From Escherichia phage Ec_MI-02, in the sequence record OP856590.1: a DNA stretch of 64,000 nt, one strand, 5' to 3'. The notes under the pieces were generated by a model, which did not search any database, was not told the origin of the DNA, and worked only from the letters and a program-made list of their open reading frames with translations. Both the position numbers and the translations under genes were made by a program. This document shows, one piece after another, positions 12 to 43,803 of the stretch; position 1 is the first letter of the stretch, and every line of letters begins with the position of its first letter.

Positions 12-2189
12 TTAGGCCGCAAGGGCCTTCATAGTTTTAGCGATTTGGGAAACTTCATCATCACTTAAAGAGTTGCGATAACTGATGAAGTCGGAAACGA
101 TACGGAATTTCTTGGTAAACTCAGCAACCATTTTATCACTGTTTTTTGAAGCATTATATGATAGTGTTTCAAAAAGATTAGTTACTGTCCAGATATCATG
201 ACCGATGGTATCTTTTCCACCATTGAAATATATACCCTGCAATGAACTAACCATATTACCAAGGCGAGTATATTCTTCAGAAACTTCATCTACACTGAAG
301 TACTTCATCATAAAATCGAGTTCAGGATACTTGATAATTTTATCAATATATCGTTTAGCTGAACTTGAATAACCTACATACTTATCATAATCTACAGCAT
401 CAAAAGCATCTACATATAAATCACGCAGAGTTTCAAAAATACATTGGCACTGACCAAGTTCTTTTATCTTTTTCTGCAAAAGCGGACGAATAACATAAAA
501 TTCATTAATGCCAATAAGATTAGCCATACGAGTCAAAATACTCGTAGATGGATTACAAAGCGATGTAGTGCCATCCATAGAGAAAATATCAGAACGATGC
601 ATGTATGCTACGTAACCAGTAATTTCATCTGCTTCTGATGTGAGCGTAAACAGTTCCTCTTTTTCCCAGCGCCCGTCTTTAATTTCAAACTTAAATGCAG
701 TAGCAGCTTTAGGACGAGGAGCTTTACTTTTAACTGCCTTCGGAATATAACTTTTAACTAAAGCTTCAATTTCTGACAAATAATGAATGTTAACTTCATC
801 ACTTTCAAACATTGCCATAATATCAGGAAGTAAATCAATCTGCGATTCTACTTCCGGATTAATAAACAGAAGACGCTCATTATGATGAATATTCAAAGTG
901 TTATTAAATTCACTATCATCTAACGCATGCGCTAATCCACGGACAATATTAACACGATTTTTAATATTATCAATAACGATATTGATTTTTGTTGTATTAA
1001 TACCAAACAGACGATAACTTGATGCAACGGCTGAAGTTTCATGACTTTGCTTAATGCGTTTCAGTCGAGGGTCAAGATTTACTTCATACACAACTCCTGC
1101 ATTGCATAGTTTACTATCAGGTTCAAACATGCTTTGCATCTTCTTATATGACAGATTTTTAGTCGTAAATTTGACTGAATTACTAATCATATAATCTCGA
1201 GCAGAATATCCCATCTTCATCAATTCACGGTATGTATGACGAGGAGATGTAGATTCTTTAAATCGTTTTACATCTTCATTGAATGCCTTCTCACTAAGCT
1301 CTTTAACACGCTCAATAATATTTTTACGAGTACGATCATCTAGTGAAAGAGCTTCGCGTGATGGAGCAATATCCAGTGAACCCATTGGAAACTTAATGTA
1401 ATTCACTTCATTGCGGATGCTTAACCAGTTACGGTCTCTAATAACGCCATCGATAGGATAAACAATACCACCATAGATAGCATACAATCCACCACGATCT
1501 GGCCAATATCTTTCTGGATTTACGCCGTAATAGTCATCAAAATCCGGAAAATAATCAATTTCGCGGTCAAGACCATTAATGATAGCCAAATCTTTGAATG
1601 GTCGCATGATATAAGAAACTTCATAAGCAAAGTTTCTAAAGTCCTTTTCTTCAACTGGAACTACGATTTCAATACCAGTTTTATCATCTGGACCCATTTC
1701 TTTTACGAACGTAGGTTTAATTTGCGGACCATCTCCATCCATGTAAGCTATATAACCACGAATTTCACCTTTATGATACGAAGTAATACTAAATGTATCA
1801 GTATAACTAAACGGAGATTTAGAACCTAAACCAAATCCACCAATGAAATCATTAGATTCAGCCTTAGATGAACTAAAGTATGAATTATACAACCCAGGAG
1901 AATTATCATCACCCTGAATATCAAAATCGCTCATACCCGGACCAAAATCTCGGCAAACAAATCGCGGATCTAATCGTCCTGGAACTTGAATGATAAATTT
2001 TTCAGGATTTCCGTTGAGAGCATGGGCATCAATCATGTTGGTAATCAATTCACGGACTACTGCGCGAATCTTGTTTGTATACAAATCAGATGACAGAATT
2101 TTGAATACTTTAGGAGATGCTGTGATGCTAAATGCTTTTGATTTAGAACCATTACCAAGAATTGTTTCTTTTTCAGTGGTGATAATCAT
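12..2189 (-). CDS. rIIA: rIIA membrane-associated protein (725 aa)
   Basis: 725 aa, same length as T4 rIIA; ATG confirmed at 2187-2189; sits directly downstream of rIIA.1 and gene 39/60 as in T4. Confidence 0.9.
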
Positions 2190-2199
2190 AATTTCCTCA

Positions 2200-2403
2200 T
2201 TAATTCATATTGCGTTTAATAACTTCGGCAACTTCTAGTAGTTCATCTTTAGTTGCGGTGTCGGATTGAATTTTATCTCTAATATCCTTAAAGCGGTTTT
2301 TAAACTCTTCGGCTTCTCCCATATCGAAAAAGCGTTGAATGATTCTATATTCTCGATGAACTGCTTTATCAAAAAGTTCTAAATTTACTTTATATGATTT
2401 CAT
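2200..2403 (-). CDS. rIIA.1: small hypothetical protein at the rIIA.1 position (67 aa)
   Basis: ATG start; between topoisomerase gene and rIIA; early promoter immediately upstream. Confidence 0.6.
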
Positions 2404-2428
2404 TTCAATATCCTCATTTGCCCAATTA

Positions 2429-2458
2429 ATTATACCACATCCTTGTGGTAAAGTAAAC
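2429..2458 (-). promoter_or_regulatory. T4 early-type promoter (GTTTAC -35, TATAAT -10) for rIIA.1/rIIA
   Basis: minus strand GTTTAC-N18-TATAAT; near-identical copy at 48083..48112. Confidence 0.6.
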
Positions 2459-4275
2459 TACTGGCTCATCCATTCTTTACGAAGGTCAGCATTATCTCCC
2501 ATGAGCATTTCAAAAAGCTCTTTCCAATTCTCAGGAAGTTTAACAACATCATATACCGGGTTTTGAATCATCTCACGATATTCAGATTTTTCCAAAGAGC
2601 CAAGTCCCTTAATATAACGGATGCTATGTTTAGGTAGAGCATCTTTGGCACTCTCATATTCAGCGACTGTATAAAACCATTCTTGTTTTTTACCGACCTG
2701 AGCGATGATTACAGGAGTTTTGACGAAACGAATTCTTCCTTGTTCAAACAGTTCTGGCCAATTACTAAAAAATCCGAGCAGAGAAGGATAAATGCTTCCT
2801 AGACCATCGTGGTCAGCATCGGTCATAATAGCAATATTATGATAATTCAAGTTTTCGGCTTTTTCACCAAGAACTAATCCAGTGATTGCGCAAATATCAA
2901 ACAGTTCTTTGTTTTTAAGCATATCAGCATATGACATACCCCAACTGTTGAGAACTTTACCACGTAATGGATAACCACCGTGAAGTTCTTTATCACGAAC
3001 ATCAATAAGATATCCGATAGCAGAATCACCCTCAGTCAAGAAAAGAGTCGTGTCAGCATCTTTACCACAAAGATTCGCTTTAATATGTTTATGAACCTTA
3101 GCTTTAGAGGCCTTTTTAGCTGCTTTAGTTTCTGCTGCTTTTTCTGCTGCCAATTTACGAGCCAAGGCAGCTTCAATAATTGGCATTAAAATTGCTTCAT
3201 TGTTTAAAATAGCGCGTGAAATCTTTTTAGCATCAAGCTGAATATGACTACGAATTTCACCAAATGGAGAAGTCAAACGCTCTTTAGTCTGAGCATCAAA
3301 TCGCATGTTTTTCATATCACGAACAAACATAACGATAGTCAAACATTCTTTAACACGTGCTTTAGTTACATCAATTTTGAACTTACGTTTGATTTGTGGA
3401 ATAAGGTCTTCACAAATATCATCCATAACACAGTCAATGTGATGACCACCATTCTTAGTATGAATGTTATTGACGTATGTTAATTGACGAAAACCATCCG
3501 GTGAACGACCAACCGCAATAGAACAATTTTCTTGTTCTTGAACAATAGCATGCTCATCATATTGGCGTGCATATTTCTTAAAATTACCCTGAACCTTTTT
3601 ACCGTTAAAGGTAAATTGAATATCAGGATAAACTACTGCAAGTGTCTGGAGACGATCTAGTGTAATGTCAAGATAAACCTGAGATAGCTCATTAGTTTCA
3701 AATGACATAAAATCAGGAATGAAAGTAACACGAGTTCCTTTCCATTTTCCAGGAATATCTTCCCATGATTTATTTTCCATGCCATTTGAACAACGAACTA
3801 CAATATTATTTTGACCGTCGCCAGTTTCACCGACAAACATTACAGAAAAAATGTTAGTTAAACTAGAACCAACACCGTTCATACCGCCAGTGACGCGTTC
3901 TTTATCATCACCGAAGTTACCACCTGCTTTTGGAATAGTCCAGGCAGCAACAGGACCAGGAATTTCTTCGCCGGTAGGTGTTTTAACCATCGCTTGTGGA
4001 ATACCACGACCGTTATCTTCAACTGTTACTTGATTGTTTTTAATAGTAACATTAATTTTATTCGCGAATTTAAACTTAGTACGAATACCTTCATCTACTG
4101 AGTTATCGATAATTTCATCAATAAGCTTAACAAGACCAGGTACATACTGAACACTTTCCCATTTACCAAACAGAAAGCGCTCATGCATTTCATTAGCAGA
4201 AGAGCCAATATACATGCCGCTACGCTTTTTGATATGTTCAATATCGCTCAGAATTTTAATTTCATTCTTAATCAT
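2458..4275 (-). CDS. 39: DNA topoisomerase II large subunit, fused gp39+gp60 (605 aa)
   Basis: GyrB-like ATPase start MIKNEIKILSDIEHIKKRSGMYIGSS; continuous ORF; track start at 4278 is GTG, ATG one codon later. Confidence 0.9.
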   Translation of the reverse strand: MIKNEIKILSDIEHIKKRSGMYIGSSANEMHERFLFGKWESVQYVPGLVKLIDEIIDNSVDEGIRTKFKFANKINVTIKNNQVTVEDNGRGIPQAMVKTPTGEEIPGPVAAWTIPKAGGNFGDDKERVTGGMNGVGSSLTNIFSVMFVGETGDGQNNIVVRCSNGMENKSWEDIPGKWKGTRVTFIPDFMSFETNELSQVYLDITLDRLQTLAVVYPDIQFTFNGKKVQGNFKKYARQYDEHAIVQEQENCSIAVGRSPDGFRQLTYVNNIHTKNGGHHIDCVMDDICEDLIPQIKRKFKIDVTKARVKECLTIVMFVRDMKNMRFDAQTKERLTSPFGEIRSHIQLDAKKISRAILNNEAILMPIIEAALARKLAAEKAAETKAAKKASKAKVHKHIKANLCGKDADTTLFLTEGDSAIGYLIDVRDKELHGGYPLRGKVLNSWGMSYADMLKNKELFDICAITGLVLGEKAENLNYHNIAIMTDADHDGLGSIYPSLLGFFSNWPELFEQGRIRFVKTPVIIAQVGKKQEWFYTVAEYESAKDALPKHSIRYIKGLGSLEKSEYREMIQNPVYDVVKLPENWKELFEMLMGDNADLRKEWMSQ

Positions 4276-4609: not shown

Positions 4610-4981
4610 TCACTCAAATTTAATGGCTTGAAGGAGACTAATAATTCTCAAGCGGCTTCTTTCATCTTTAACTGTAAAAGAAAGAGGGTCGCCAGATTTC
4701 ATAGTGATAGTGCATTCAAAATCAAAATCTTCAGGAACTTCTTCGAAGAAGTCAAATTCTTCGTCATAAATTAGAACATTACTCTGAAAACTGTGAAGAA
4801 TTTTTCCATCATTTCCAGATGCTGTACTAATCATTGTAACATTATGGCCTTTCATATCTTCAACGATAAATTCGCTTGTAGATATTACGGCATTAATAGA
4901 ACCATTCCTATAAATAGAAGAAAGCAGATATTTCTTTTCTTCACCTTCGCGAACACGATATTTCTTACCGATTTTAAACAT
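4610..4981 (-). CDS. hypothetical protein (123 aa)
   Basis: ORF; track start is GTG, ATG two codons later. Confidence 0.5.
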   Translation of the reverse strand: MFKIGKKYRVREGEEKKYLLSSIYRNGSINAVISTSEFIVEDMKGHNVTMISTASGNDGKILHSFQSNVLIYDEEFDFFEEVPEDFDFECTITMKSGDPLSFTVKDERSRLRIISLLQAIKFE

Positions 4982-15473: not shown

Positions 15474-15643
15474 TCAGTCTTCAATGAAAACTTGTGCCAG
15501 GAATTCATGTTCATCTTGAATTTGTTTATATAAAGCCATTACAGCATTTATATTAGAGCTATCTACTTTAAGCTGATAGGCATACCACTCGTGTAAATTA
15601 ATTAAAGCTTTTTGTCGTCTAATAAATTCTTCTTTGGATATTT

Positions 15644-15844
15644 TCATTTTGAATGCTCTATAATTAATTTTAAGGCTTCTTTACTGACAAAAATTTCATC
15701 AAGACCTTCTTCTACACCCCAATCAACTGCACGAAGCTGATTAGATAAGAGCTCGTATGTGAGCTCTTTGTCATAATTTTTAAATAGCTGGTCAATACGT
15801 TTCTTGTGGGCTTTCTTAAGCTGGCGTTTATTTAAACGAGCCAT
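15644..15844 (-). CDS. hypothetical protein (66 aa)
   Basis: ATG start; ATGA overlap with gene 56. Confidence 0.5.
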   Translation of the reverse strand: MARLNKRQLKKAHKKRIDQLFKNYDKELTYELLSNQLRAVDWGVEEGLDEIFVSKEALKLIIEHSK

Positions 15845-16362
15845 TAATAACCTCGGTCTTGACGAGCGAAGTTTTCAGCATTTTTCAGATAATAAAGTTT
15901 AAAGATTTCTTCAGCTGACATTCCAAGAGCAATAAATTTATTCATGAAAAAGTGAAATTGATCAATCAATTCAAATTTAATTTCAAGTTGATCTTCAGGA
16001 GATAAATCTTGAATTTTCTTGGATTGCATTTCAGAATAACGTTTCTTCCAAGGTTTCCATACAGCAGAAGCTTCTTTTTCGCCATTACTCATACCACCAA
16101 GAGAAGTATATAGCTCGCGAGTTTCGTCTGCGATATAATCGTCTTGGTTTCGCAGCCAAGCAAGAACTTCTCCTGCAGTTTCAAGTGAATCGGGATGACG
16201 ATTTGTTTCTGGTTTATCATTAGCCAAACGAATCTGTAAATGCCGCTGCATATCAAGCATAACTTGCAGTGGGTCAATATTGTGCATAATATTCTCAGCA
16301 TATGCACGATTTGCTTTATCAACACCTTCGATCAAATGAGCGCATTCATTAAAGTAAGCCAT
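15844..16362 (-). CDS. 56: dCTPase/dUTPase gp56-like (172 aa)
   Basis: position between soc and 61; track ORF (203 aa) trimmed to first ATG with AAGGA SD; identity by position and size. Confidence 0.6.
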   Translation of the reverse strand: MAYFNECAHLIEGVDKANRAYAENIMHNIDPLQVMLDMQRHLQIRLANDKPETNRHPDSLETAGEVLAWLRNQDDYIADETRELYTSLGGMSNGEKEASAVWKPWKKRYSEMQSKKIQDLSPEDQLEIKFELIDQFHFFMNKFIALGMSAEEIFKLYYLKNAENFARQDRGY

Positions 16363-16433
16363 TATTTTTCCTTTCAATTCATGGGTTAGTAGATTAATTA
16401 TACAATAAATATATAAAGCAATAAGGAGGATAT

Positions 16434-16634
16434 ATGGTACAAAAATTAATGGCACTTGTTAATGCCATAAAAGGTAATAAAAAACGTATAGCTTTTACTA
16501 TTTCTGCTATGATAGGAATTTTACTCTGGAATTTTGTTTTATCACCAATTGCTATTGCTCATGGTGTTAATATTCCAGTAATTACTCTTGATACATTCGT
16601 AGATTTAGCATTTGCTTTAGTTGGGTTAATTTAA
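16434..16634 (+). CDS. small single-pass membrane protein (66 aa), plus strand
   Basis: ATG 4 nt after AAGGAGG SD; hydrophobic helix AFTISAMIGILLWNFVLSPIAIA; convergent with gene 61 (stop codons overlap). Confidence 0.45.
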   Translation: MVQKLMALVNAIKGNKKRIAFTISAMIGILLWNFVLSPIAIAHGVNIPVITLDTFVDLAFALVGLI

Positions 16635-17659
16635 ATCTTAGCATATTTAGATAGCCGCATTTTAGCCATCAACCCTTGGGCAATATTATTTTTCATATAT
16701 TCCATAATTTGTTTAGGGGTTGCACCTTCCTTTCTAATCATATCATTAACATCTTTTGATTTCCAGGGAGATTTATCCCAAAACATAACCCTTTCTCCTG
16801 CATCAACTAATTTAGTCATTCGTTTAATAGTGTCAGGGTGACGAGGTTCATTATCTAAAACCCACACACGTCTATCTTTAAATGGAACAATTTCTAGGTC
16901 TAATTGACCGCCCGTAATAGCTATACCATTTTCAATAAAAAGTGAATCTATAGGTCCTTCTAGAACATATACATCACCATCTTTGACTCGTTCAACTCCA
17001 TAAATTTTTGTTGCCTCAGGATAAGCTTTGATGGTGATATATTTTTGAGGAGCATCTTTCTTTAATGCACGTCCTTGAAAAGACTCAGCTTTTCCATTAG
17101 CATTATAAATTGGAATAACAAGACGAGGCTCAGGTATTTCCTTTTTATATGTTCCTGGCGCTATACTATTAACTAATTTAGGCCATTCGGTTGTAAACCA
17201 AAGATATTTCCATTTATCCTTTGGAATACAACGAGCTTTTACATATTTTATAATTGGATGGTCTTCCGCCAATTTATCTAATCTAATGCATGACGGAAGA
17301 GATTTAATTATTTTCTTCTCAGGTTGTTTAGGAAGTTCTTTAGGTTTTTCTACTGGACGACTTTTACCTTTTTCTTTTCTTATTTCAAAGATATATTCAC
17401 GATATAAATCAGGTTCAAACTCCTTTAAATATATTCCGATTGGTGCATGATAGTTACAGTTATAACAATGAATATTTCCTTCATTATTATCGCCATAATA
17501 CCATCCACGGGCTTTATTTTGGTCGGTTTTTGAATCTCCACAAACAGGGCATCTAAACCGTAATTTAAAAGTTGAACTATTATTTACTTGTGCGAATTTA
17601 GGTAAATGAGCTAATGCACGGTATGCAAACTCATTATCAATCCAAGGTATTGATGACAT
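16631..17659 (-). CDS. 61: DNA primase gp61 (342 aa)
   Basis: 342 aa; N-terminal zinc ribbon CPVCGDSK...CYNC; ATG confirmed. Confidence 0.9.
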   Translation of the reverse strand: MSSIPWIDNEFAYRALAHLPKFAQVNNSSTFKLRFRCPVCGDSKTDQNKARGWYYGDNNEGNIHCYNCNYHAPIGIYLKEFEPDLYREYIFEIRKEKGKSRPVEKPKELPKQPEKKIIKSLPSCIRLDKLAEDHPIIKYVKARCIPKDKWKYLWFTTEWPKLVNSIAPGTYKKEIPEPRLVIPIYNANGKAESFQGRALKKDAPQKYITIKAYPEATKIYGVERVKDGDVYVLEGPIDSLFIENGIAITGGQLDLEIVPFKDRRVWVLDNEPRHPDTIKRMTKLVDAGERVMFWDKSPWKSKDVNDMIRKEGATPKQIMEYMKNNIAQGLMAKMRLSKYAKI

Positions 17660-17827: not shown

Positions 17828-18184
17828 TTAACCTCTATTCATAAAAGCATTAAAAATTTGGTCATCAATCGATGGAATAGCAACTTTTTCTGCGTCATTT
17901 AGCAAATCATTAATTTCATCAGATAGCATAACGCATGTACCTTTATTTCCTGTAATTGTTACTGCACAATTACGAACGTTTTCTTTATCAAATTTTAGGT
18001 TAATATTTTCGTAGTGAAAATCCTTTAATGCCGAATATATTTTTAAAATGAAATTGTCTTTTACTACAATAAACCCAACCTCACTATTAAAACGCGGTTC
18101 ATGGAAGCTGTAATAAATCTTTTCATCTATAAAATCGTATGAAATTTTTTCCATTTTTAAATATGAAAATTCAGAACTATACAT
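17828..18184 (-). CDS. hypothetical protein (118 aa)
   Basis: ORF track coordinates kept; printed sequence near the start is inconsistent with the track translation by 1 nt. Confidence 0.5.
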   Translation of the reverse strand: MYSSEFSYLKMEKISYDFIDEKIYYSFHEPRFNSEVGFIVVKDNFILKIYSALKDFHYENINLKFDKENVRNCAVTITGNKGTCVMLSDEINDLLNDAEKVAIPSIDDQIFNAFMNRG

Positions 18185-20759: not shown

Positions 20760-21104
20760 TTAAAAGAATTTAAATTTTTTCTTTGGCCTTTTATTAAACG
20801 CATCTTGTAGTTGCATTGTAATACATTTTTCTACATGAGGAGCTAACTCAGCTTTTCTTTCTTGGTCAAGAACAGCAAAGTCCATTACGACTTTTCCATC
20901 AACCCAATCTAATTTTGTCACATACGCGATGTGTGTAGAACCGTCTTCTAGTTTAATGACAATCTCCTGGATAACATTTTCCATGGCAGATTTAATTATC
21001 TTAAGAGATTCATTAAAAAGACGTTCTTTTCTTTCTTCTTCCCCCTCCGAAGAGGGGGATTCATCGATAATTTCTAGATCTAAATCTAAATCATCTTTAT
21101 TCAT
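20760..21104 (-). CDS. 40: gp40 head vertex assembly chaperone-like (about 114 aa)
   Basis: between uvsX and 41; track start 21122 is GTG overlapping uvsX, ATG at 21104 with weak SD chosen. Confidence 0.55.
   Translation of the reverse strand: MNKDDLDLDLEIIDESPSSEGEEERKERLFNESLKIIKSAMENVIQEIVIKLEDGSTHIAYVTKLDWVDGKVVMDFAVLDQERKAELAPHVEKCITMQLQDAFNKRPKKKFKFF
21041..21058 (-). other. stable GC hairpin with UUCG loop inside gene 40 coding sequence
   Basis: CCCCCUC-UUCG-GAGGGGG (7 bp stem). Confidence 0.6.
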
Positions 21105-43758: not shown

Positions 43759-43803
43759 AATAAAACCCTTACCTTGAATAGATAAGGGTATTTATTATTT
43801 TCA

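Follow-up and report, generated by a model that had tools for sequence, protein, structure and literature searches.

Gene dam.1 of T4-like phages: a conserved gene, missing from the T4 reference annotation, for a predicted late single-pass membrane protein

The plus-strand ORF between genes 56 and 61 of Escherichia phage Ec_MI-02 is an ordinary copy of the T-even gene dam.1 (phrog_2024) and is thus already known. In the explanation that best accounts for the results overall, and that is considered likely, dam.1 encodes a membrane protein that is probably produced late in infection and, as a more tentative part of the proposal, may bind through its helix and modulate an event at the cell envelope. 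Added here to the existing record are the breadth of conservation (at least nine genera), a conserved late-promoter footprint, a predicted topology together with an invariant motif, and the omission of the gene from the T4 reference. The window is the whole stretch of 64,000 nt of record OP856590.1 that was analyzed, and the coordinates in Table 1 refer to it.

Table 1. Positions in the window of dam.1, the adjacent genes and the associated signals.
Feature	Position	Strand	Description
dam.1 coding sequence	16434..16634	+	ATG at 16434, TAA at 16632-16634; 66 aa plus stop
dam.1 Shine-Dalgarno sequence AAGGAGG	16423..16429	+	followed by ATAT and then the ATG (4-nt gap)
Predicted gp55-type late promoter AATAAATA	16404..16411	+	A(-13) variant of TATAAATA
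Predicted MotA-dependent middle promoter of gene 56	16397..16422	-	aligns to T4 P(M) 16.53 (X01416)
Gene 56 (dCTPase/dUTPase)	15844..16362	-	172 aa; phrog_173, E 2e-44; divergent from dam.1
Gene 61 (DNA primase)	16631..17659	-	phrog_47, E 2e-106; convergent with dam.1
Terminator-like hairpin with T-run	16449..16468	-	within dam.1 codons 6-12; 3 G-C pairs, weak

Results

Organization of the dam.1 locus

The deduced product of dam.1 is the 66-residue sequence MVQKLMALVNAIKGNKKRIAFTISAMIGILLWNFVLSPIAIAHGVNIPVITLDTFVDLAFALVGLI, encoded on the strand opposite to that of all the neighboring genes. Since an in-frame stop codon lies directly 5' of position 16434, this ATG is the earliest start open to the gene. 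The Shine-Dalgarno sequence AAGGAGG occurs three times in the whole 64-kb window when both strands are counted. At the 3' end the tetranucleotide TTAA at 16631-16634 is common to the stop codons of dam.1 and gene 61, the stop codon of the latter being the reverse complement of 16631-16633. An earlier sequence-only reading of the same DNA had described the ribosome binding site 4 nt 5' of the ATG, the 66-residue ORF and the overlapping stops, all of which were confirmed on the sequence. No paralogue of dam.1 was found within the window, and the strand complementary to dam.1 carries no annotated gene.

Gene 56 starts with the ATG at 16362, in agreement with its annotation in PP01, ECP2301 and T4. 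A 203-aa minus-strand ORF at 15844..16455, which the sequence-only reading had regarded as artefactual, is a GTG-started upstream extension of gene 56 and nothing more, the gene encoding 172 aa in all three of these phages. In T4 and T4T the gene dam is present between gene 56 and dam.1, whereas the window lacks it; no dam-like sequence, including a relocated dam, was detected anywhere in the window. The T4 annotation and the window search therefore agree with the suggestion, voiced with reserve in the earlier reading, that T4 carries dam in an interval from which it is missing here. The dam-less junction from gene 56 to gene 61, of the type present in the window, is widespread; it was matched contiguously by 345 phage records, and the T4-type junction from dam to the ORF by 180.

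Other differences from T4 were observed in the vicinity. In place of the homing endonuclease gene segF of T4, the window has two small ORFs of 57 and 66 aa between soc and gene 56 (15474..15844, minus strand), which are labeled "soc.2", "head protein" or "virion structural protein" in relatives. The gene 61.2 homologue (17828..18184, minus strand) encodes 118 aa in the window and PP01 and 208 aa (627 nt) in T4 and ECP2301.

Annotation and distribution of dam.1

The gene is annotated in T4T (HM137666.1, 17724..17924) as dam.1, with the product "Dam.1 hypothetical protein" (ADJ39749.1). In hundreds of other records the product is labeled "hypothetical protein", and in the T4 records NC_000866, AF158101 and MT984581 the ORF is left unannotated. 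The T4 copy (NC_000866.4, 17738..17938) is 92% identical to that of the window and matches it in length and in location, ending against the 3' end of gene 61 on the other strand, as is also the case for T4T. The product encoded in the window is identical in sequence to deposited proteins. The exact T4 Dam.1 sequence had no NCBI accession among 15 billion proteins. The literature searched, which covered ribosome profiling of T4, ORFs missing from annotations and the start sites of T4, contained no discussion of dam.1. In the record of the closest relative, ECP2301 (L002, OR880646.1), the product names over 2135..3360 look offset by one gene, such that the 66-aa ORF bears the name "DNA primase" and the primase itself, of 342 aa, is a "hypothetical protein".

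Residues 2-66 of the product aligned with positions 1-65 of the 65-position phrog_2024 profile ("unknown function") with an E value of 8.2e-31. A tblastn search found dam.1 in 692 phage records, in 500 of which the identity was at least 90%, so that the conservation in close relatives on which the sequence-only reading had made its proposal depend was found. The primase gp61 was found at 95% identity or more in 501 records; comparison of the two counts indicates that nearly every Tequatrovirus record retains dam.1.

Diverged copies were present at the same site and in the same orientation in at least eight genera beyond Tequatrovirus, and therefore in at least nine in all. They fall into subfamily A (48-68% identity), from Mosigvirus, Gaprivervirus and metagenomic relatives, and subfamily B (18-28% identity), from Dhakavirus, Marfavirus, Kanagawavirus, Karamvirus, Gelderlandvirus and Jiaodavirus, both of which matched phrog_2024. 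The comparison of the 56-61 interval across T-even phages that had been proposed showed that relatives keep the gene in the same place and orientation: gene 56 or dam, then dam.1 on the opposite strand, then a convergent gene 61, is the order in T4, PP01, ST0, VR25, JS98 and CIP9 as well as in Marfa, PEi26, CkP1, Q7622, SEA1, W1W2-10 and metagenomic contigs. The stop codons of dam.1 and gene 61 overlap in most lineages. The Gaprivervirus VR25 has a tandem pair with one copy from each subfamily (L004, 2495..2901). In TH40 (L006) a second copy lacks an intact ORF and is apparently decayed. The gene was missing in Biquartavirus, Lazarusvirus and Slopekvirus, in which a co-directional gene directly follows the primase. 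A profile search of 1.84 billion representative proteins returned six matches, all of them family members or truncated or frameshifted copies, and revealed no wider family.

Evidence for protein coding

The +1 frame of dam.1 is open in 16 of 16 lineages, and each of the other frames in four at most. Mean pairwise differences at codon positions 1, 2 and 3 were 0.52, 0.34 and 0.65 respectively, the second position being the most conserved. Between genera, where the proteins share 18-54% identity, synonymous differences approach saturation (pS 0.56-0.86) and nonsynonymous differences are fewer (pN 0.23-0.39); the window and T4 copies differ with a dN/dS (omega) of 0.29. These patterns indicate that dam.1 is under purifying selection at the protein level. 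Together with the match to phrog_2024, the conservation across genera and the topology prediction, they uphold the earlier proposal of a genuine plus-strand gene for a micro-protein predicted to cross the membrane once, and we are highly confident that dam.1 is a real gene for a membrane protein.

It is barely credible that the ORF is unexpressed and open by chance, with its conservation owed to the 3' untranslated region of gene 61 or to promoter and terminator signals of the minus strand. It is true that the 5' end of the locus coincides with a terminator-like minus-strand hairpin and the gene 56 middle promoter, and that the ORF is not annotated in the T4 RefSeq record. The open frame in all 16 lineages, the protein identity retained between genera, the conservation of the second codon position and the tandem paralogue in VR25 all count against this explanation. 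The hairpin, which possibly ends gene 61 transcripts, was seen in T4 and the window and was missing from other genera; since it is restricted to Tequatrovirus, a minus-strand terminator is rejected as the cause of the conservation.

Expression signals

The T4 late promoter is TATAAATA, occupying positions -13 to -6 (PMC1524935). The octamer AATAAATA is located 22 nt 5' of the dam.1 ATG; it differs from this sequence by A at -13, a T to A change found in 9 of 50 listed T4 late promoters (PMC2988020) at a position that is weakly conserved across T4-like phages in general (PMC1524935). The implied transcription start would be near 16417, with a leader of about 17 nt and a TATAAATA-type box approximately 6 nt 5' of that predicted start, as in T4 late genes. 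The sequence-only reading had noted an imperfect late-type motif upstream, and the class of motif was correct; the octamer it chose, TATATAAA at 16410-16417, is rejected as the late box in favor of AATAAATA 6 nt upstream, which is both the better match and conserved.

The motif WATAAATA is depleted about three-fold in the window, with 8 sites observed against 26.4 ± 5.3 expected. Five of the eight are located 22-34 nt 5' of ORF starts, namely those of soc, dam.1, a 70-aa ORF and two ORFs of 157 aa, one of which is gene 49-like and is presumably gene 49. Like dam.1, soc and the gene 49-like ORF are late genes within early regions and combine a late box at this distance with a Shine-Dalgarno sequence; dam.1, the promoter of which is predicted, is unlike them in having the A(-13) variant and in lying opposite to all its neighbors. 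The eight sites include those at 4909, 14167 and 61867 on the plus strand and at 43796, 57385 and 63456 on the minus strand. Three plus-strand sites lacking an ORF could be the starts of antisense late RNAs, judging from the motif. A preprint on T4 dRNA-seq gives 150 T4 start sites of which 22 are antisense (bioRxiv 10.1101/2024.04.04.588121).

In 11 of 14 lineages NATAAATA is present 16-22 nt 5' of the dam.1 ATG within flanking sequence that is not conserved, and CIP9, Marfa and Q7622 have a perfect TATAAATA. ATAAATA is missing in three lineages (L007, CkP1 and SEA1), the last two of which retain TTAAATA. The depletion of WATAAATA, the location of its sites ahead of ORF starts and the recurrence in 11 of 14 lineages indicate that AATAAATA is beyond chance. 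A strong Shine-Dalgarno sequence (AAGGAGG, AAGGAG, AGGAGG or GGAGG) lies 4-8 nt 5' of the ATG in all 14. No sigma-70-like plus-strand promoter was found near dam.1, and the fold of the 5' end of its mRNA was not significant (z -0.46). These signals suggest that dam.1 is probably made late in infection, a conclusion held somewhat less firmly than that of a real gene.

The consensus of the MotA box is well established for T4 middle promoters. On the minus strand the predicted gene 56 promoter has the MotA box ATTGCTTTA (16422 to 16414), an 11-nt spacer and the -10 sequence TATAAT (16402 to 16397), and the late box of dam.1 sits within the spacer. The 71-bp intergenic region thus apparently accommodates a middle and a late promoter that diverge and overlap, an arrangement that results from the absence of dam. 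In ST0 and JS98 the late box is just outside the MotA box rather than inside the spacer. The T4 box is GATAAATA, a less common deviation, and is kept even with dam lying between it and the promoter of gene 56.

No plus-strand intrinsic terminator was found after dam.1 before position 20837, a distance of about 4 kb, and a late dam.1 transcript is inferred from the sequence to run antisense into gene 61. It is conceivable, if improbable, that this late RNA, antisense to gene 61 and passing over the middle promoter of gene 56, is what matters most and that the peptide is secondary. The convergent layout with stops overlapping in most lineages, the extent of DNA free of terminators and the position of the late box are in accord with such a role. 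An RNA-only function would leave unexplained both the purifying selection on the protein and the strong Shine-Dalgarno sequence in 14 of 14 lineages; the RNA may have an antisense role in addition to that of the peptide.

Predicted properties of Dam.1

The protein is predicted to comprise an amphipathic N-terminal helix (residues 2-13), the basic cluster KGNKKR, a transmembrane helix at approximately residues 19-42 and a short conserved periplasmic tail. A single transmembrane-competent segment (19-mer) was found in each member of the family. The C-terminal hydrophobic stretch is too short and too polar to span the membrane, above all in subfamily B. There are 5-7 Lys and Arg residues on the N side of the segment and 0-1 on the C side, from which the positive-inside rule predicts a cytoplasmic N-terminus and an external C-terminus. 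The AlphaFold2 model has helices at residues 2-13, 16-42 and 52-63 with a mean pLDDT of 75. Beside Met1, five residues do not vary among 15-16 diverse members: W32, N33, P38, G44 and P48. They are grouped in the juxtamembrane segment and in the half of the helix nearer the periplasm, and the half nearer the cytoplasm varies freely. An invariant Asn within a transmembrane helix promotes helix-helix association.

Pfam and NCBIfam scans with five diverse members gave no match at E values up to 10, and a profile search of the PDB gave chance matches only (E of 0.7 or more). Foldseek returned nothing from the PDB and, from BFVD, family members only (OE5505 and CIP9).

The size, hydrophobicity and apparently late production of Dam.1 would suit a protein that forms pores in the manner of a holin or pinholin and promotes lysis unaided, and one UniProt entry, the 63-aa allele of phage OE5505, is labeled "Holin"; no support for the label was found. 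Holins typically cross the membrane two or three times, or once with a large domain in the periplasm, and end in a charged tail. Dam.1 has a single competent segment and a 24-residue periplasmic tail, and its C-terminus is hydrophobic and devoid of basic residues, in contrast to the charged cytoplasmic tail that is usual in holins. No holin match was obtained in Pfam, NCBIfam or PHROG (E up to 10, 10 and 1 respectively), and no endolysin gene is nearby, the neighbors of dam.1 being genes 56 and 61. The T4 holin is the product of gene t, and since t-null phage fail to lyse, a redundant holin is argued against. Overall, a pore-forming role is very improbable.

A membrane anchor or chaperone for late assembly, for example in initiation of the prohead at the inner membrane, is conceivable but improbable. 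T4 proheads begin on the inner membrane, a late promoter suits morphogenesis, and T2 and T6 records carry the label "putative head morphogenesis protein". That label is unsupported, no homology to head proteins having been found, and the most conserved residues face the periplasm, not the cytoplasm in which the prohead lies. We know of no such locus from decades of T4 head genetics. A superinfection-exclusion protein of the T4 Imm or Sp type, for which homology and early expression would be expected, finds no support, there being no PHROG or Pfam link and a late-type motif in place of a sigma-70-like promoter.

Discussion

The results are best accommodated by Dam.1 as a late membrane protein that acts through its helix, for which the following sequence of events is proposed. 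Transcription by gp55-RNA polymerase would begin late in infection at the AATAAATA box (16404-16411), producing a transcript with a short leader and a near-perfect Shine-Dalgarno sequence from which efficient translation of the 66-aa product is expected. Dam.1 would then cross the inner membrane once, its basic N-terminus remaining in the cytoplasm and approximately 24 residues reaching the periplasm. Its helix may bind another copy of itself or a different membrane protein, encoded by the phage or by the host. Such binding could modulate a late envelope event, whether the timing of lysis, lysis inhibition or a membrane-bound step of assembly.

Small single-pass regulators that bind through a helix include the T4 antiholin RI and the bacterial proteins MgrB and AcrZ. 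Dam.1 resembles this class, as a functional analogy, in size, in having a single helix with an Asn inside it and in conservation at one face of the membrane; in contrast, no relation of sequence or fold to these proteins was detected, and the periplasmic domain of RI is larger. Since there is no homology to proteins of known function, the functional part of the proposal is conjecture. That a small late protein tunes a late envelope event by binding another envelope protein via its helix and juxtamembrane segment is accordingly worded here as a tentative suggestion. Still more speculative, and on balance unlikely, is the idea that Dam.1 is an unrecognized late component of the inner membrane, for example one whose helix binds the holin T and antiholin RI system, the spanins or an envelope protein of the host. 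The gene may have escaped study because the T4 annotation and the proteome lists derived from it omit dam.1 and because digestion of the protein with trypsin yields hardly any peptides that can be used, a single hydrophobic one of 48 residues being left.

Few viruses have been studied as thoroughly as T4, yet a gene that T4-like phages of at least nine genera have conserved is omitted from its RefSeq record and from AF158101. Resources built gene by gene on the T4 annotation have probably skipped dam.1, and placing the gene in that annotation again would be a small, concrete correction. If the proposed role in the control of lysis or in another envelope process is true, Dam.1 would be a new component of a textbook system.
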